Source: Candidatus Iainarchaeum sp. | Lineage (GTDB): Archaea > Iainarchaeota > Iainarchaeia > Iainarchaeales > CSSED10-239 | Direction: 5' to 3' | Length of the DNA stretch: 11,479 nucleotides | NCBI GenBank assembly: GCA_003559395.1 | Contig: PWLL01000004.1 | Span: forward strand, 1-11,479 | Shown: positions 2,994 to 11,479 of the stretch, one piece after another | How positions within the stretch are numbered: position 1 is the stretch's first letter | Layout of the letters: each line of letters begins with the position of its first letter | Notes under the pieces: model-generated | The model's database searches: none | The model's input: the letters and a program-made list of their open reading frames with translations, nothing else | Told to the model about the DNA's origin: nothing | Program-made: the position numbers and the translations under genes

Positions 2994-3278
2994 ATGGCTA
3001 TGAAAGAAATGGACAGGAAAAATGCTGTTAGGGAGGAAGCTCTCAAGGAAATCAATCTGGAAGGTTACACTCAGGTAGCAACCGCATCTTTTATCAAGGA
3101 AGTTGAGAATGGTTTCGTAGAGGTTAAAGTAATTGCAAAAAACGCTACCTTCGGTGAAGCTGAACTCGCAGAAGCAGTTGAAAACTACAACTTCGAGCTT
3201 GAGGAAAGGGCAAAAAGAGAAGCCAAAGCTGAGGCTAAAAGGAAAGAAAAAGCCGAAAAAGCAAAGTCTAAAGAATAA
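2994..3278 (+). CDS. Hypothetical protein (94 aa) with an acidic core and a Lys/Glu/Ala-rich tail
   Basis: ORF with an AAAGGGG RBS. The C-terminus is RAKREAKAEAKRKEKAEKAKSKE. It sits behind three stacked promoters and upstream of the ncRNA and tRNA genes, with no terminator in between. Confidence 0.7.
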   Translation: MAMKEMDRKNAVREEALKEINLEGYTQVATASFIKEVENGFVEVKVIAKNATFGEAELAEAVENYNFELEERAKREAKAEAKRKEKAEKAKSKE

Positions 3279-3280
3279 TC

Positions 3281-3311
3281 TCCTAACCTGAGCAAGTTAT
3301 AAAACTGCTCC
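3281..3311 (+). repeat. Hairpin-motif copy (stem GAGCA/TGCTC, loop AGTTATAAAAC)
   Basis: TCCTAACCTGAGCAAGTTATAAAACTGCTC. It belongs to the family found at 7001-7233. Confidence 0.7.
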
Positions 3312-3690
3312 CTTATGAGGGCACGTGTATAAATATCCCTCAATACTCGAAAAAAGGTTTATAGTAGAGACGGAGATTCCAAACCAGAAACCTTTGAGCC
3401 TTAATCCTAGGATAGTAACGTATAGCGGTCCCGCTGGGAAATCCGATAAAGTTACTCCAATAATGGAAGGCGACAGTCCACGAGGTAATTCTCCAGAAGC
3501 ACTGTTAGGGAAACTCACCAGACGCAGCAGTCTGAGCAAAAAAATGCTAAACCAATGGTAAATTGGGGTTGCGTCCCCACGGATAGCATAAGTCCATTCA
3601 CTGCAGAGATAAAGTTATGTAAAGTCACGGATGAGCCGTGCCATTGGTAGTTATTCATTGGTAGGCATACCGAATGACTAAATGTAGCCC
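3311..3690 (+). ncRNA. Candidate structured ncRNA I (about 380 nt, class unknown)
   Basis: The region is GC-enriched relative to its flanks. It carries overlapping ORFs on both strands that lack an RBS. Local helices are dense: TGAGGG/CCCTCA (3316/3337), AAAGGTTT/AAACCTTT (3353/3387), AGTAAC/GTTACT (3414/3451) enclosing TCCC-GCT-GGGA, CAGAC/GTCTG (3519/3530), CCAAT/ATTGG (3552/3562) and CACGG/CCGTG (3626/3636). A hairpin-motif copy lies on each side, and the region is co-oriented with the downstream tRNAs. Confidence 0.55.
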
Positions 3691-3716
3691 GACCCGAGCA
3701 AGTCGTTAAACTGCTT
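3690..3716 (+). repeat. Hairpin-motif copy (stem GAGCA/TGCTT, loop AGTCGTTAAAC)
   Basis: CGACCCGAGCAAGTCGTTAAACTGCTT. Confidence 0.7.
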
Positions 3717-3814: not shown

Positions 3815-3887
3815 GGCAGAGAGAATCGGTATTCAAGTAAGGTTCATACCCTTGCCTTCGTAGGTTCGACTCCTACCTCTGCAACCA
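3815..3887 (+). tRNA. Atypical tRNA-like gene, anticodon CAT
   Basis: The T-arm GTAGG-TTCGACT-CCTAC is canonical and the anticodon loop is TTCATAC. The D-arm is GAAT-CGGT-ATTC, with only a 4-nt loop and no GG. There are 2-3 nt between the D and anticodon stems, and pair 1:72 is a G/A mismatch. CCA is encoded. Confidence 0.5.
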
Positions 3888-3894
3888 GCCCACA

Positions 3895-3937
3895 TCCTAA
3901 CGCTTGGCGAGCTGATGGTACTGGTTAAACAGTTAGG
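3895..3937 (+). repeat. Hairpin-motif variant with an insertion in the loop
   Basis: TCCTAAC-gcttggcgagctgatggtactggt-TAAAC-AGTTAGG. The outer stem CCTAAC/GTTAGG is retained. Confidence 0.55.
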
Positions 3938-4125: not shown

Positions 4126-4154
4126 TTGACTTTCATTTCCAATTATGTTATACT
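4126..4154 (+). promoter_or_regulatory. Promoter of tRNA block 2
   Basis: TTGACT (4126-4131), a 17-nt spacer ending in TGT, then TATACT (4149-4154). Confidence 0.75.
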
Positions 4155-4222
4155 ATATATAGAATAAAAAAAGATAGTGTTTTTTGTAAAGACTAAACAT
4201 TAATTTTTTACAAGAGGTATAT

Positions 4223-4298
4223 GGGGTTTTAGTTCAGAGGTTAGAGCATTTCTCTCATAAGGAAAAAGCCCAAGGTTCAAATCCTTGAAGCCCCACCA
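4223..4298 (+). tRNA. tRNA with anticodon CAT (Met or lysidine-Ile)
   Basis: Acceptor GGGGTTT/AAGCCCC, D-arm GTTC-AGAGGTTA-GAGC, anticodon loop CTCATAA, T-arm CAAGG-TTCAAAT-CCTTG, then A73 and CCA. Confidence 0.85.
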
Positions 4299-4301
4299 CG
4301 A

Positions 4302-4378
4302 TCCTCACTCGTCCAACTGGTAGGACACCGCACTTTTAATGCGGATTAGTATAGGTTCAAGTCCTATGTGAGGAACCA
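4302..4378 (+). tRNA. tRNA-Lys (TTT)
   Basis: Acceptor TCCTCAC/GTGAGGA, anticodon arm CCGCA-CTTTTAA-TGCGG, T-arm ATAGG-TTCAAGT-CCTAT, CCA encoded. Confidence 0.85.
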
Positions 4379-6142: not shown

Positions 6143-6145
6143 CAT

Positions 6146-6224
6146 GGGGCAAAAATGGCTCGAACAACTATAATACCGTCCAGGAATAGTTGAGAGGAAA
6201 GTTCAATTCTTTCTTGCTCCACCA
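6146..6224 (+). ncRNA. tmRNA TLD-like minigene A (76 nt plus CCA)
   Basis: GGGGCAA-AAATGGCTCGAAC-[CAACTAT-14 nt loop-ATAGTTG]-AGAG-GAAAG-TTCAATT-CTTTC-TTGCTCC-A-CCA. It has G3:U70 and ACCA. A TGGnTCGA(A)C D-analogue replaces a D-arm. There is no 7-nt anticodon loop. Confidence 0.6.
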
Positions 6225-6307: not shown

Positions 6308-6373
6308 GGGGATGTAATGGCTTCGACAGGGATTTATTTCTGGACATCGGTTCAATTCCGATCATCTCCACCA
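6308..6373 (+). ncRNA. tmRNA TLD-only minigene B (63 nt plus CCA)
   Basis: GGGGATG-TAATGGCTTCGAC-AGGGATTT-A-TTTCTGGAC-ATCGG-TTCAATT-CCGAT-CATCTCC-A-CCA. It matches the 5' end (GGGGCUGAUUCUGGAUUCGACGGGAUUU) and the 3' end (..UUUCGGACGCGGGUUCAACUCCCGCCAGCUCCACCA) of E. coli SsrA, as recalled, joined directly. G3:U70 is present. Confidence 0.7.
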
Positions 6374-6859: not shown

Positions 6860-6888
6860 TTGACTTCAATTAAAAATTATGTTATAAT
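6860..6888 (+). promoter_or_regulatory. Duplicated promoter, copy 1
   Basis: TTGACT (6860-6865), a 17-nt spacer ending in TGT, then TATAAT (6883-6888). Confidence 0.8.
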
Positions 6889-6942
6889 ATATATATAATA
6901 AAATAAAGGTTTAGTTATAAATAAAATTTCACTTATAAAATG

Positions 6943-6971
6943 TTGACTTCAATTAAAAATTATGTTATAAT
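6943..6971 (+). promoter_or_regulatory. Duplicated promoter, copy 2
   Basis: TTGACT (6943-6948), a 17-nt spacer ending in TGT, then TATAAT (6966-6971). Confidence 0.8.
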
Positions 6972-7000
6972 ATATATATAATAAAATAAAGGTTTAGTTG

Positions 7001-7233
7001 GTCCTGAGCAAGACATTAAACTACTTAGCAACAGAAAAGTCCTAAACAAAAGACTCCTTTGCTCACCTTAAACTGTTTAGTCCTAAGCCAGACTATAAAA
7101 TGCTTTATGTCCAGCAAGACGATAAACTGCTATTGCAGTGTCCTAAACAAGACCTGTGAGCTTTGATAAAAAGTTTTAGAACTTTTTATCCCCAAACTGT
7201 TTAGTCCTAAACAAGACTATAAACTGCTTATAG
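7001..7233 (+). repeat. Six abutting copies of the (G)TCCTAAACAAGAC-N-AAACTG(C/T)TTAG hairpin motif
   Basis: Units lie at 7001-7028, 7039-7080, 7081-7108, 7109-7135, 7140-7204 and 7205-7233. The 5-bp inner stem is (G/A)A(G/A)CA / TG(C/T)T(C/T) and the 11-nt loop is AGAC-NNN-AAAC. Units 2 and 5 carry 15-nt and 40-nt insertions inside the loop. The unit 5 insertion is itself a hairpin, GATAAAAAGTT/AACTTTTTATC. Confidence 0.75.
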
Positions 7234-7245
7234 TATAAATTTAAT

Positions 7246-7810
7246 GTACCTTGAAAAAATAATATTTGTATCTTAGTGTATGACACGCCTGTGTGCTAAG
7301 AGCCTCCGCATATTAAGAACCTACATAGAGGGATACCTTTATAAGAGTTCTTTAGTTGTTAAGCAATTAACAATTAGAAGAGCCAAAAGCTCAACAATAG
7401 GGATGCGTGCTGTTCTCAGGAAGAAGATAAGATATGTAAAGGACTCGAGAAGGTAATATACGCCTACAGTGTAGGAATGAGCCAATATGCAAATAGGGTA
7501 AGACCTATTTGACCACTATTGGTAAGCTGACCCAACTTCTTTAGCCGTGATGTGCAAGAAATTGTGCTATAAGAGATTCCTTACAGTAAAAGTAGCCTAA
7601 GGCTTAAAGAATATGGAACTGATAATTCCGTTTTATTTAATAAGCTGAACGGTAGGTGAAATTTACAGGTAGAAAATCCTGTCTGTGCTTGACAAGGGTG
7701 AAAAGTATTAGGGTAGCTCCTTAATATTCAGCTTCACTCTCACAGTGATCGAACATCCCATTCTGTTGATGGTAAAACGAAAGTTTACAAATATTATTTT
7801 TTCAAGGTAC
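7246..7810 (+). ncRNA. Candidate large structured ncRNA II (565 nt), possibly ROOL/GOLLD-class
   Basis: GTACCTTGAAAAAATAATATTTGTA (7246-7270) is the perfect reverse complement of 7786-7810. The interior is GC-enriched and has no credible ORF. It is rich in hairpins, some with G:U pairs and a GNRA loop: TCTTAGTGTA/TGTGCTAAGA (7271/7292), TTGTTAA-GCAA-TTAACAA (7357-7374), GAGC/GCTC (7380/7389), CCTAC/GTAGG (7462/7470), AATAGG/CCTATT (7492/7504) and ACAGG/CCTGT (7665/7678). It lies downstream of the tandem promoters. Confidence 0.6.
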
Positions 7811-8140
7811 TTTAGACACACTTTCCGTGTGAATAATATACTTTAAATGTTAATAGACCATACCAAAACTATTAATCCTAAACATGATTTAAAAAATGTT
7901 ACTATGCTACCAGACGCAACTGGTCTCTAAAAGGGTGAGTGGTTCTCATATATGTATATATCTATGTATACATTAAACCTTTTAGAAATACAACAATACC
8001 TTAGCAAGACACAAATATAGCCGACTGTGTTAAGGACCGAAAAGGTATAACCAGCCGAATTTAGGTCTTTAGGGCTTAAGCTTGAGTTCTTGTGAGAATT
8101 CTGACTATATGTGAAGTCATAGAAACGCATAGGATTTAAT
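7811..8140 (+). ncRNA. Further non-coding, probably transcribed and structured segment
   Basis: No ORF here has an RBS. It contains two more hairpin-motif variants (7876-7905 and 7999-8035). Helices include CACAC/GTGTG (7817/7827), ACCAG/CTGGT (7909/7920) and ACCTTTT/AAAAGGT (7977/8040). A possible closing helix pairs ATTAATCCT (7871) with AGGATTTAAT (8131). No terminator separates it from 7810. Confidence 0.35.
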
Positions 8141-8170
8141 AAAGAGGGTTAGATACGTCTAACCCTCTTT
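8141..8170 (+). other. 13-bp perfect hairpin (processing site or attenuator/terminator)
   Basis: AAAGAGGGTTAGA-TACG-TCTAACCCTCTTT followed by AATTT. It sits 9 nt upstream of the tRNA-Gln-like gene. Confidence 0.5.
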
Positions 8171-8179
8171 AATTTATAT

Positions 8180-9737: not shown

Positions 9738-9800
9738 TGCAACTTATACAAAATTATATAAGCTCAGGGTACAAAAGTTTTCCTTTAGTGTGTTTATATA

Positions 9801-10220
9801 TAGTCTTGGTAAGAAAATAAGAATAAAAGTGGGATATTGTTTATAAAAATGATTAAATGTCGAAATCGGCACATACCATTTTTTCTCTTTATTTCCCCAC
9901 TCCACCTCTCCGCACTACAATTTTTTACATGAAAAACAGCAACTCTTTTGGATCTCGCTACATAGTCTTGGTAAGCTCGTTCTTCTTTCTCGATCTCCTT
10001 TAACGCTACCTTTTAGCTACTATATATATAGTCTTGGTAAGCTCGTCCTCCCTTAATTTCATCCCTTAACTACTATGTTTATGTTTATATTTATATTTTT
10101 ATCTCCTTCCCCCATGTATAAATGCCACAGTTTGTATATAAGTAACTATATATATAATCTTGGTAAGCTCGTTCTCCCTTAACGCCATCCTTTAGCTACT
10201 ATATATATAATCTTGGTAAG
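9801..10220 (+). repeat. Degenerate 53-66-bp repeat family with the 13-nt core TA(G/A)TCTTGGTAAG (5 copies)
   Basis: Cores lie at 9801, 9963, 10029, 10155 and 10208. Four units extend as ..TATATATA(G/A)TCTTGGTAAGCTCGTTCTCCCTTAACGC.A.CCTTTAGCTAC. They are arranged as two tandem pairs. Confidence 0.8.
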
Positions 10221-10293
10221 CTGGATCTCCTTTAATGTTATCTTTTACATCTTGTATAATCTTTGTTCTTTTGTTAACATCTCACTTCACCTT

Positions 10294-10325
<32 letters not shown>

Positions 10326-11463: not shown

Positions 11464-11479
11464 AGATCGGAAGAGCACA
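11464..11479. other. Illumina adapter prefix (non-biological)
   Basis: AGATCGGAAGAGCACA equals the first 16 nt of the TruSeq read-through adapter AGATCGGAAGAGCACACGTCTGAACTCCAGTCA. Confidence 0.9.

Follow-up and report, generated by a model that had tools for sequence, protein, structure and literature searches.

RNA genes and repeat copies in the window

The window analyzed here, an 11,479-nucleotide stretch of Candidatus Iainarchaeum sp. (contig PWLL01000004.1), contains several RNA genes accompanied by copies of a short repeat. Two tandem sigma-70-type promoters lie on the + strand at 6860-6971 (TTGACT-17-TATAAT at 6860-6888 and 6943-6971). Each matches 11 of 12 consensus positions, and the promoter region is an 80-nt duplication with 94% identity. 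These promoters are predicted to drive a transcription unit composed of an array of six repeat units and a ROOL RNA. By using Rfam, the latter (RF03087) was recognized at full length at 7248-7806 on the + strand (298.4 bits, E = 2.6e-68), a match that is limited to these positions and leaves the array outside.

With CAAGACNNNAAACTG as the query and up to two mismatches allowed, six occurrences were found in the window, all on the + strand, compared with 1.04 expected; none of 200 shuffled sequences reached six. A covariance model trained on 147 copies from outside the window was then run on the window with filters off. It gave six listed matches scoring from 39.7 to 20.2 bits, again all on the + strand, and no minus-strand match with E < 0.5. 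In total, the window carries eight solid copies (two canonical and six imperfect), all on the + strand, and one more that is marginal. A preliminary description of this DNA had reported a repeated, strand-specific motif in eleven copies; its occurrence beyond chance at the places described was reproduced, and the number of solid copies was reduced to eight.

The two canonical copies bracket a noncoding RNA, ncRNA I. Copy A (3285-3310, + strand; AAC-CU-GAGCA-A-GUU-AUA-AAAC-UGCUC; 39.7 bits, E = 9e-9), with helices AAC/GUU (P1) and GAGCA/UGCUC (P2), flanks ncRNA I on the 5' side and begins 6 nt past the stop codon of a listed 94-aa ORF (2994-3278, + strand) for which a Pfam search returned no match. 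This stop-to-motif gap equals the minimum of the family. Copy B (3691-3716, + strand; GAC-CC-GAGCA-A-GUC-GUU-AAAC-UGCUU; 36.4 bits, E = 6e-8) lies between ncRNA I and a tRNA-Ala gene (3731), from which 14 nt separate it.

The six array units abut one another on the + strand between the double promoter and the ROOL RNA, and none is fully canonical. Unit 1 (7001-7026; GUC-CU-GAGCA-A-GAC-AUU-AAAC-UACUU; 27.8 bits, E = 1e-5) has a C.A mismatch in P2, and the second promoter has its -10 box approximately 20-30 nt before this unit. Unit 2 (7039-7078; GUC-CU-AAACA-AAA-GAC-(15-nt insertion)-AAAC-UGUUU; 5.9 bits), delineated by eye, has a 3-nt L2 and a P2 extendable to 7 bp by using AG at 7079-7080. 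Unit 3 (7080-7105; GUC-CU-AAGCC-A-GAC-UAU-AAAA-UGCUU; 20.2 bits, E = 1e-3) shows a C.U mismatch in P2 and AAAA in place of AAAC, and unit 4 (7109-7131; GUC-C-AGCA-A-GAC-GAU-AAAC-UGCU; 21.1 bits and E = 5.5e-4 for 7113-7131) has a 1-nt L1 and a 4-bp P2. Unit 5 (7140-7202; GUC-CU-AAACA-A-GAC-(40-nt insertion)-AAAC-UGUUU) was taken from the sequence, and its insertion contains a hairpin of its own, AUAAAAAGUU..AACUUUUUAU, seen in the minimum free energy (MFE) fold. Unit 6 (7204-7229; GUC-CU-AAACA-A-GAC-UAU-AAAC-UGCUU; 28.3 bits, E = 8e-6) has an A.C mismatch in P2 and ends 18 nt before the ROOL RNA. The low model scores of units 2 and 5 result from their insertions; judged by eye, all conserved parts are present in both. 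Since all six units deviate at near-invariant pairs, some of them may be inactive. The units resemble chimeras from unequal recombination, and other DNA repeats, such as TTTAGTTGGGTAA and ATAGTCTTGGTAAG, are abundant in the window.

The marginal copy is a degenerate one located 3' of the ROOL RNA (7875-7901, + strand; AUC-CU-AAACA-U-GAU-UUA-AAAA-(A)UGUUA; 12.1 bits, E = 0.12), in which C20 is lost and L2 is U, as in the variant of Staphylococcus phage 80. At 7997-8035, a weak model match (E = 0.6) has a first helix that is unable to pair, and a variant proposed at 3895-3937 was not detected by the covariance model with filters off.

A 26-nt H-type pseudoknot

The motif is a 26-nt H-type pseudoknot with the consensus xyz-CU-RRRCA-A-z'y'x'-NNN-AAAC-UGYYY, drawn from more than 300 copies in viral and bacterial contigs. 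Stem 1 consists of 3 bp between nt 1-3 and nt 12-14 and has a conserved C-G closing pair, while stem 2 consists of 5 bp between RRRCA and UGYYY. Loop 1 is CU, the junction is a single A, and loop 3 is NNNAAAC; its invariant AAAC is likely to occupy the stem 1 minor groove. Conservation ends sharply at the borders of the 26 nt, and the flanks are depleted in G.

A degenerate scan permitting every combination at four variable pairs yielded 128 non-identical matches among those listed. In these matches, the first pair of P1 is A-U in 57 and G-C in 71 with no mismatch (Fisher 9e-38), and the second is A-U in 73 and U-A in 54 with one mismatch (Fisher 1e-35); stem 1 is paired in 127 of the 128 copies, with one mismatch in 256 cells. 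Compensatory changes occur at three pairs of stem 2. Among the same listed matches, its outer pair is A-U in 30, G-C in 89, G-U in 6 and A.C in 3, and its third pair is A-U in 7 and G-C in 119. Across 147 distinct copies, 175 double-sided changes were counted under the pseudoknot compared with 50 in shuffles, the closing pair is C-G in 145, and slid controls are only 26-42% paired. Stem-1 sequences also differ among copies of one phage. The unpaired C4, U5, A11 and AAAC are very strongly conserved. The scan patterns fixed AAAC and A11 in advance; U22 was left free and is likewise invariant.

The preliminary description had drawn a hairpin with an AGAC-N3-AAAC loop. The GAC of that loop pairs and covaries with the 5' GUC, previously placed in an outer stem, and because this 5' trinucleotide covaries with the supposed loop, the plain hairpin is replaced by the pseudoknot; an MFE fold of 6995-7247 (z = -2.4) did not recover the units. 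Nor is AGAC..AAAC retained throughout, as the copies at 3285 and 3691 have AGUU and AGUC, and the outer CCUAA/UUAGG pairing, regarded as a general feature, is present only in units 2 and 5. Compensatory change in the inner 5-bp stem is confirmed by the covariation counts, and both helices covary outside the window. The proposed tolerance of insertions between GAC and AAAC is evident in units 2 and 5, where they are confined to the NNN part. No Rfam family overlaps any copy in the window at E <= 1, and a search of phage 80 at E <= 10 gave only a chance-level overlap with mir-1255 (15.6 bits versus a threshold of 63, E = 2.9).

Likeness to coremin and other known elements

To our knowledge, exoribonuclease-resistant RNAs have so far been known only from eukaryotic RNA viruses. 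Among them is coremin (xrRNA_C), reportedly described by Dilweg and colleagues in 2019 and 2023 in beny-, cucumo- and many other RNA viruses. Judging from sequence and fold, the motif closely resembles coremin and may represent a prokaryotic and phage-borne relative of it. Coremin is GUCCGAAGACGUUAAACUAC, and the copy in an RNA-virus contig (L010) is GUCCUAAACAAGACGUUAAACUGUUA; copies of this type retain 17 of the 20 nucleotides of coremin in the same order. Both elements have a first helix of 3-4 bp with covarying pairs and a C-G closing pair, a loop starting with C and ending with AA, and 2-3 free spacer nucleotides followed by AAACU. Both also share a loop-spacer pseudoknot (proposed in the case of coremin), tolerate insertions at the start of the spacer, and occur on the sense strand in UTRs or intergenic regions, at times in tandem. 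The spacer of array unit 1, AUUAAACUAC, is nearly the same as that of coremin, GUUAAACUAC. Mutagenesis of coremin demonstrated that its first hairpin (hp1) needs pairing but not sequence identity, apart from a sequence-specific C-G closing pair, that the loop begins with Y and ends with A-D, that AAACU is essential, and that the first 2-3 nt of the spacer are tolerant and allow insertions (PMC6546385). The essential positions of coremin are the invariant positions of the phage-type motif.

Several differences are also apparent. The motif has an 8-nt loop (CUGAGCAA) with U as its second nucleotide, whereas coremin loops have 4-6 nt with G in second place. The motif loop begins with C (100%) and ends with A-A (about 100%) and does not follow the literal consensus YGAD/YGNNAD, which is likewise broken by octaloops that occur in coremin. 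Stem 2 has five canonical pairs in the motif and approximately three, partly non-canonical, in coremin. Moreover, coremin depends for its Xrn1 resistance on another hairpin immediately after it (hp2, 4 bp or more), whereas the motif has no obligatory hp2: such hairpins are not enriched after phage copies (27/168 versus 20-36 at control offsets), and the 35 nt downstream of copies are less structured than the 35 nt upstream. An hp2-like hairpin is seen in some copies (contigs L037 and L047, and weakly at 3311-3321 in the window). Finally, the motif occurs in dsDNA phages and in chromosomes of bacteria, where Xrn1 is absent, while coremin is found in plant and fungal RNA viruses.

The pseudoknot between loop 1 and spacer of coremin (register 7-19) has been proposed, and shown for a Watson-Crick variant (PMC10321173); this variant is xrRNA_WCC (Dilweg et al. 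2023, RNA Biol). A literature search found no solved coremin structure, and the explicit 5-bp stem 2 of the motif, together with its rich covariation, supports this topology. In xrRNA_WCC, as in the motif, loop 1 pairs with the spacer in the same register to give an antiparallel Watson-Crick stem 2. Frameshifting is stimulated by xrRNA_WCC without hp2. Its loop has 4 nt and its stem 2 has 3 bp, its Xrn1 resistance still depends on hp2, and only two natural viruses are known to carry it.

Frameshifting pseudoknots of luteoviruses (BWYV and PLRV) are, like the motif, compact H-type folds (less than 30 nt) in which an A-rich loop crosses the stem 1 minor groove. However, their stems have 5 + 3 bp rather than 3 + 5 bp, and they lie within ORFs behind slippery sites, whereas the motif avoids ORFs. 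According to PMC10321173, luteovirus-type frameshifting pseudoknots do not block Xrn1. The xrRNAs of flaviviruses and of the tombus/luteo type share with the motif a proposed role, a protein-independent block to 5'-3' exonucleases. They too occur in tandem, and intergenic copies upstream of coat-protein genes give rise to sub-genomic RNAs, but they are ring-forming folds of 45-70 nt without sequence resemblance to the motif. In Gram-positive bacteria, 5' mRNA stabilizers (ermC, the aprE leader and the phage SP82 element) act as 5'-proximal obstacles that shield the RNA behind them from RNase J1. These are hairpins, bound ribosomes or RNase III products, and we know of none that is a conserved pseudoknot family. 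A flaviviral xrRNA blocks purified bacterial RNase J1 in vitro (PMC5760640).

Other types of element were considered and rejected. A CRISPR-repeat mimic, a ToxI-like antitoxin, a preQ1-like riboswitch, a boxB/put antiterminator and an N4-type hairpin promoter all fail to fit the covariation, the unit architecture and the copies in RNA viruses. ToxI-like repeats, with a fixed length of approximately 34-45 nt, were not matched by the array units of 23-63 nt, and no toxN-type gene follows the array, since ROOL comes next and no + strand ORF of at least 60 aa occurs before 8400. The antitermination-type signal suggested in the preliminary description found no support and would leave the RNA-virus copies unexplained.

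Genomic placement and the proposed role

Of 189 copies from other contigs, 165 share the orientation of the flanking ORFs, 8 have the reverse orientation, and only 2 fall inside same-strand ORFs. This agrees with the earlier view that the motif belongs to the transcribed strand and is an RNA element. A DNA-level repeat (a protein-binding, iteron or recombination site) might be suspected from the repeat-rich window and the chimera-like units. However, this sense-strand bias, the covariation of two crossing helices, and the presence of the motif in RNA-virus genomes all argue against it, and covariation and strand bias have effectively refuted it.

At least 124 GenBank phage records match the motif, with hosts mainly in Staphylococcus, Arthrobacter, Lactobacillus and cyanobacteria and no enterobacterial or Pseudomonas hosts among the matches listed. 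S. aureus phage phiETA is one of the carriers. A search of 5,426 E. coli genomes (28 Gb) gave 0 matches. Copies also occur in Moraxella phages and one Acinetobacter genome, and the motif spans many bacterial phyla, including bacterial chromosomes and cellular operons of Saccharibacteria. It is further present in ourmia-like RNA viruses, and RNA-virus contigs L010 and L013 (with a tombus-like coat) and L073 carry a phage-type motif just after the RdRp ORF. Pfam gave no matches for these RNA-virus polymerases; their identity is based on the A/B/C motifs and on a pairwise match of L073 with L013. Contig L047, where the motif lies beside only a GDD-containing ORF, is a candidate RNA virus. The hosts of the RNA-virus contigs are presumed to be eukaryotic.

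The motif is not a regular accessory of ROOL. Although the window copies are at the 5' side of RNA-only units, as the preliminary description had indicated, a regular-expression search found no copy in 120 other ROOL-bearing viral loci (1.09 Mb) collected with a ROOL-specific pattern, nor did the covariance model find a significant one in 100 of them. Conversely, nhmmer searches with the ROOL, ncRNA I and distal segment of the window found nothing in motif-bearing loci. No near-identical relative of the window was found in GenBank phages, and its 274-aa protein retrieved no related viral contig.

In many siphophages, the motif is located between portal/head-morphogenesis and scaffold-capsid genes. 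S. aureus phages B236 and 80, Geobacillus phage D6E, Lactobacillus phages AQ113 and KC5a, as well as prophages L169, L175 and L228, all carry it ahead of the scaffold and capsid genes. A position immediately ahead of scaffold-capsid genes and tRNAs recurs among phages of Staphylococcus, Lactobacillus, Geobacillus, Arthrobacter and cyanobacteria. Gaps of 6, 7, 8, 9 and 10 nt from the upstream stop codon are found in 33, 31, 24, 13 and 10 copies, respectively, and gaps of 0-5 nt in 6 copies in all, so that the knot, starting with few exceptions at least 6 nt after the stop codon, lies just outside a terminating ribosome. Downstream start codons are mostly 18-42 nt from the motif. Both features might reflect a ribosome-directed insulator, in which the knot, at the leading edge of a ribosome finishing the upstream gene, blocks post-termination sliding, re-initiation or read-through run-on and thereby uncouples translation of the next gene. 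Scanning ribosomes are also stopped by coremin, which in addition promotes -1 frameshifting and was subjected to a screen in E. coli (PMC10520033, PMC10321173). Such a role is nevertheless improbable: it leaves unexplained the copies without an upstream ORF (the array after the promoters and copy B after an apparently noncoding stretch), those between tRNAs in contig L119 and those in RNA-virus 3' UTRs, and the hard minimum is equally explained by a need of the knot to stay folded. The 5' UTR position and the topology, comparable in size to preQ1-I, are also reminiscent of small ligand-sensing pseudoknot riboswitches. This idea is extremely improbable, because downstream genes share no function, copies precede tRNAs and ncRNAs and form tandem arrays, the RBS lies outside the fold, and no Rfam riboswitch matches.

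Neighboring tRNAs are on the same strand in 208 cases and on the opposite strand in 26, which also supports an RNA-level element. Where the motif precedes tRNAs, it lies 1-14 nt upstream. The motif could be regarded as a protein site, either a target of a host or phage endoribonuclease or RNA-binding protein or a 3' cap against 3'-5' exonucleases, with the array as a multivalent platform or decoy. A decoy array had been put forward in the preliminary description and may be a possible reading. Conservation of the single-stranded C4, U5, A11 and AAAC, as specific contacts would require, placement right after stop codons, like 3' stabilizers, and 1-8 nt from tRNA 5' ends, and the tandem array behind strong promoters are consistent with this reading. 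As a 3' cap, the motif might protect upstream RNA after downstream cleavage, such as RNase P processing of a neighboring tRNA. We consider the protein site unlikely, since no gene family regularly accompanies the motif: flanking proteins are diverse, their clusters are small (the largest comprises 21 upstream proteins from one phage group), and no common neighboring gene was found. Its spread over phyla, Saccharibacteria operons and RNA-virus contigs also argues against one dedicated partner, the related coremin works in vitro with purified Xrn1 alone, and nothing upstream of the window array would need a 3' cap.

A very small self-cleaving ribozyme separating the RNAs of polycistronic phage transcripts would likewise account for a compact pseudoknot with invariant unpaired nucleotides that lies between tRNAs, ncRNAs and genes in DNA and RNA viruses alike; phage ribozymes (hammerhead and HDV-like) occupy such sites too. 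It is nonetheless very improbable: 26 nt is far below the size of any self-cleaving class known to us, published assays show coremin transcripts as intact bands without nuclease, and no Rfam ribozyme family matches.

We give about an even chance to the motif being a protein-independent, mechanical roadblock of the xrRNA kind that halts 5'-3' decay and caps the downstream RNA, a putative function that is drawn from the resemblance to coremin. A 5'-3' exoribonuclease (RNase J1/J2 in most motif-carrying hosts) would digest the single-stranded, G-poor leader and stall at the base of stem 1, leaving a stable RNA with its 5' end flush with the knot. In the window, knots would thus cap ncRNA I, the tRNA-Ala unit and, through six redundant units, the ROOL RNA. 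The earlier suggestion that the motif defines ncRNA ends is probably right, with exonuclease stalling likelier than a dedicated binding protein or endonuclease. In siphophages, the 3' part of the late transcript (scaffold-capsid), which is required in large amounts, would outlive the 5' part.

Staphylococcus, Arthrobacter, Lactobacillus and cyanobacteria possess RNase J, whereas E. coli lacks it, and this host range was counted in favor of a roadblock, as were the near-absence from ORFs and the stop-codon spacing. The tight spacing to the upstream stop codon suits a 3' protective or ribosome-related role equally well. The copies in Moraxella phages and an Acinetobacter genome, lineages in which RNase J is generally considered absent, count against the proposal, as do the missing hp2 and the non-consensus loop (second nucleotide U). 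Because RNase P removes the tRNA leader and the tRNA itself is nuclease-resistant, a knot directly upstream of a tRNA also seems redundant.

In the literature searched, no paper linked exoribonuclease-resistant RNAs or coremin to phages or bacteria, and a search with the literal motif sequence returned chance primer matches only. Tentatively, and at somewhat less than even probability, the motif may constitute the first prokaryotic class of exoribonuclease-resistant RNA, with a fold universal across RNA viruses, phages and bacteria that sets differential transcript stability and caps tRNAs and ncRNAs. The array behind its two strong promoters would then also act as a sink that stalls and titrates host RNase J, comparable to flaviviral sfRNA with Xrn1. 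If knots stall RNase J-type enzymes, this would explain how far more scaffold and capsid than portal is made from one long late transcript. The way in which phage tRNAs and large ncRNAs, ROOL among them, acquire their 5' ends would then follow a general rule, and cells, DNA viruses and RNA viruses would all employ one tiny fold. These proposals are directly testable, given that S. aureus phages 80 and phiETA as well as Lactobacillus phages, all tractable systems, carry the motif, and the 26-nt element might serve as an RNA-stabilizing part for Gram-positive synthetic biology.

Covariation and architecture of the repeat unit

The preliminary description had presented the repeat as a plain hairpin with an AGAC-N3-AAAC loop. 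Its repetition is genuine, with CAAGACNNNAAACTG (at most two mismatches) occurring six times in the window, all on the forward strand, against 1.04 expected, and with none of 200 shuffles reaching six. The structure, in turn, is a 26-nt H-type pseudoknot, because the trinucleotide at the 5' end covaries with the supposed loop and the second stem covaries as well. When viral contigs were scanned for the exact pattern CCTAAACAAGACNNNAAACTG, 29 loci were found, each match having GT before it and TT after it; the constant 5' GT therefore makes the conserved unit longer on that side than a hairpin needs. Two window copies without 'AGAC' (3285, AAC-CU-GAGCA-A-GUU; 3691, GAC-CC-GAGCA-A-GUC) begin with a trinucleotide complementary to one in the presumed loop.

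Pairing was counted in 128 non-identical matches among those listed from a degenerate scan with RWCCTRARCAAGWYNNNAAACTGYTY, which admitted every combination at four pairs and matched at least 120 viral loci. The first pair of stem 1 was A-U in 57 and G-C in 71, with neither G-U nor mismatch (Fisher 9e-38), and the second was A-U in 73 and U-A in 54, with one mismatch (1e-35). For stem 2, the outer pair comprised 30 A-U, 89 G-C, 6 G-U and 3 A.C mismatches (6e-20), and the third pair 7 A-U, 119 G-C, 1 G-U and 1 A.C mismatch (7e-10). An alignment of 147 distinct copies gave 175 cells with changes on both sides of the crossing structure (((..[[[[[.))).......]]]]], compared with 50 in shuffles, and slid controls were 26-42% paired; this alignment was chosen for pairing, and the RWCCTRARCAAGWYNNNAAACTGYTY scan is therefore the unbiased test. 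Secondary copies from these loci contribute the first helices CAC/GUG, UUC/GAA and CUC/GAG and compensated changes of the closing pair (e.g., CAU/AUG), and the first helix differs between copies inside one phage. The unit consists of a 3-bp stem 1, a CU loop 1, a 5-bp stem 2, a junction A and a loop 3 of NNNAAAC; conservation stops exactly at the 26 nt, with only G-depletion in the flanks.

A covariance model built from the 147 copies, all from outside the window, and applied to the window without filters recovered six significant copies (3285, 3691, 7204, 7001, 7113 and 7080), all on the forward strand. Among the remaining proposed copies, 7875-7901 is marginal and decayed, stem 1 cannot form at 7997-8035, and the model finds nothing at 3895-3937. 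The single copies said to bracket ncRNA I are the two canonical ones, copy A (3285-3310) and copy B (3691-3716), and copy A starts 6 nt past the stop codon of the ORF at 2994-3278. A recognition site for a protein or an RNase, including 3'-end protection of the upstream RNA, remains an alternative reading of the motif.

Some 20-30 nt separate the array of units 1-6 (7001-7229, forward strand) from a duplicated promoter upstream of it (6860-6971), and the array ends 18 nt before the ROOL RNA. Units 2 and 5 retain all parts, with the variable stretch of loop 3 enlarged by insertions of 15 nt and 40 nt, respectively. All six units are off-consensus, owing to a stem 2 mismatch, the loss of C20 or a shortening of loop 1, and several resemble chimeras of AAACA-type and AAGCA-type units, suggesting unequal recombination and relaxed selection under redundancy. 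Since the closest spacing of two copies outside the window is 77 nt, six abutting units are unusual.

Genomic position and taxonomic range

The placement of the motif on the transcribed strand was borne out in 189 copies from other contigs, 165 of which share the strand of neighbouring ORFs while 8 are opposite; two of the 189 lie inside same-strand ORFs. Neighbouring tRNAs are on the same strand in 208 cases versus 26 opposite, and a DNA-level repeat is an unlikely account of elements so oriented. At 26 copies a tRNA gene begins 2-14 nt downstream, with annotated examples in Arthrobacter phage Amigo and Nostoc phage NMeng1. One jumbo-phage tRNA array with the knot (L014) also contains IS605-orfB-I and IS605-orfB-II RNAs and a full tmRNA (3323-3469, 4136-4343).

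A second recurring site lies between portal, head-morphogenesis or protease genes and the scaffold and major-capsid genes, as in S. aureus phages B236 and 80, Geobacillus phage D6E, Lactobacillus phages AQ113 and KC5a, Lactobacillales prophages (L169, L175, L228) and metagenomic phages (L003, L022). Apart from these two settings, the flanking genes are diverse, and a riboswitch is unlikely. A variant with U for A at the junction, GACCUUAGCAUGUCGUUAAACUGCUU, occurs in Staphylococcus phage 80 (L390, 2508-2533) and 71 further Staphylococcus phage records; in S. aureus phietaviruses it is a conserved feature of the gap separating head-morphogenesis from scaffold genes, and in B236 and phiJB its site is annotated as "predicted promoter".

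The distance from the upstream stop codon has a sharp lower bound of 6 nt, beyond which copies become fewer, with 33, 31, 24, 13 and 10 copies at gaps of 6, 7, 8, 9 and 10 nt and six copies in all at gaps of 0-5 nt. By established ribosome geometry, a structure that begins 6 nt past a stop codon lies immediately beyond the mRNA entry channel of a ribosome terminating there, and translation therefore never has to unwind the knot. The family is thus kept out of reach of translating ribosomes, a spacing for which a role as ribosome insulator remains a competing explanation.

With one genome scanned per species, at least 119 genomes carry the motif, and those among the matches listed include Saccharibacteria, other Patescibacteria, Aminicenantes, Clostridia, Lactobacillales, Bacteroidota, cyanobacteria and a few Proteobacteria. 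In Saccharibacteria the knot sits in ordinary, seemingly non-phage cellular operons (L191 near 4965 and L199 near 3230, on contigs of 312 kb and 639 kb), with ABC-transporter genes on one side and small membrane-protein or P-type ATPase genes on the other (P-type ATPase in L191); the element thus extends beyond viruses. A BLAST search with six variants matched 124 GenBank phage records (Staphylococcus 72, Arthrobacter 13, Lactobacillus 11, Microcystis 8, Moraxella 4, and others), with no enterobacterial or Pseudomonas hosts among the organisms listed, and the same query had no match in 5,426 complete E. coli genomes.

Resemblance to coremin and a possible block to RNA decay

Several matches are small contigs that code for an RNA-dependent RNA polymerase. 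In the L010/L013 group, polymerase motifs A-C occur together with a tombus-like coat protein, the L073 polymerase is homologous to that of L013 (E 4e-13), and L047 contains a GDD-containing ORF that is a candidate polymerase only. In all of these the knot is located at or just past the end of the polymerase ORF. Their presence led to a comparison of the L010 copy, GUCCUAAACAAGACGUUAAACUGUUA, with coremin, GUCCGAAGACGUUAAACUAC, an RNA that resists Xrn1 and is known from benyviruses, cucumoviruses and numerous other RNA viruses. Mutagenesis of coremin established that its first hairpin, hp1, needs pairing rather than sequence, that a specific C-G closing pair is required, that the loop needs a pyrimidine first and A-D last, and that the first spacer nucleotides are free and accept insertions while AAACU is essential (PMC6546385). 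These essential positions are those conserved in the phage motif, a correspondence more telling than sequence identity.

A loop-spacer pseudoknot has been proposed for coremin by the Leiden group, with a 3-bp Watson-Crick version demonstrated in selected variants and two viruses (PMC10321173); in the phage family the second stem is explicit, 5 bp long and strongly covarying, in the same register (A7-U19, Leiden numbering). The second hairpin, hp2, is a defining feature of coremin that shows no enrichment in the phage family, such a hairpin being found downstream of 27 of 168 phage copies versus 20-36 at control offsets. It is plausible that a canonical 5-bp stem 2 needs no stacking helix, hence no hp2; in the Watson-Crick coremin variant, hp2 is dispensable for frameshift stimulation and needed for Xrn1 resistance (PMC10321173, 2023). 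The element can thus be classed as a knot of the coremin type, carried by dsDNA phages and bacterial genomes, whose Watson-Crick second stem is long and which does without hp2. No Rfam family covers it, and full-text literature searches, incomplete in coverage, found no link of coremin or xrRNAs with phages or bacteria.

The motif family is thus a compact, sense-strand, intergenic pseudoknot with invariant unpaired nucleotides, for which a minimal ribozyme is an unlikely identity. It sits 5' of abundant or stable RNAs, is common to phages and RNA viruses, and matches in architecture an RNA that demonstrably stalls Xrn1 with no cofactor present. In bacteria, the knot may stall the 5'-3' exoribonuclease RNase J or act as a general roadblock, such that decay from the 5' end would halt at the knot and the downstream RNA would survive with a structured 5' end. 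The protected RNAs would be ncRNA I, the tRNA-Ala unit and ROOL in the window, and scaffold-capsid mRNA or tRNAs elsewhere. The distribution of RNase J among lineages is established, and the skew of motif hosts to RNase J-bearing lineages, with absence from E. coli, supports the RNase J reading, whereas copies in Moraxella phages and an Acinetobacter genome argue against it. The blocking of purified RNase J1 by a flaviviral xrRNA (PMC5760640) is further support. Against a roadblock of either kind, protection of tRNA seems redundant and the array units are imperfect.

Other features of the window

The AT-rich, phage-like contig that makes up the window has 23 tRNA genes, several strong sigma-70-type promoters found by a promoter scan, and a full-length ROOL RNA (7248-7806, Rfam 298 bits). 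A role of the motif as a ROOL accessory found no support, none of 120 other ROOL-bearing viral loci having a copy. The last 16 bases (11464-11479) are the Illumina adapter AGATCGGAAGAGCACA and thus non-biological, the contig end being an assembly artefact. The putative ncRNA I (3311-3690), with no Rfam match and an unexceptional fold energy (z = -1.6), contains a 78-aa ORF (3325-3561) without a Pfam match, and could encode either a functional RNA or a small protein. Segment 7807-8179, on the 3' side of the ROOL RNA, has strong structure (z = -5.8) and terminates with a 14-bp hairpin (8140-8171) that immediately precedes tRNA-Gln. The segment may represent another ncRNA, or the ROOL transcript may extend into it at its 3' end.

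The sequence TTTAGTTGGGTAA forms a 6.7-copy array with a 19-nt period (1340-1467) and recurs singly near 1244, 1285, 1898, 1980, 2567 and 9027. Most of these sites directly follow terminators or precede promoters, and the repeat may represent a phage-regulator binding site or an iteron set. Five repeats of the ATAGTCTTGGTAAGCTCGT type, with conserved CCTTTA elements downstream of them and then a (TA)16 run (9781-10247, 10294-10325), occupy a region that is free of ORFs and looks origin-like. A mini tmRNA-like element (6308-6373, Rfam tmRNA 75 bits) has the tRNA-like domain only, its 310-nt mRNA-like part missing, and a second, similar element, GGGGC...CUCCACCA (6144-6224), is called by no tool. 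The tRNA-Met(CAT)-like gene at 3815-3887 has no normal D-arm and scores 25.3 bits in Rfam, below the threshold of 29; ARAGORN calls the gene.
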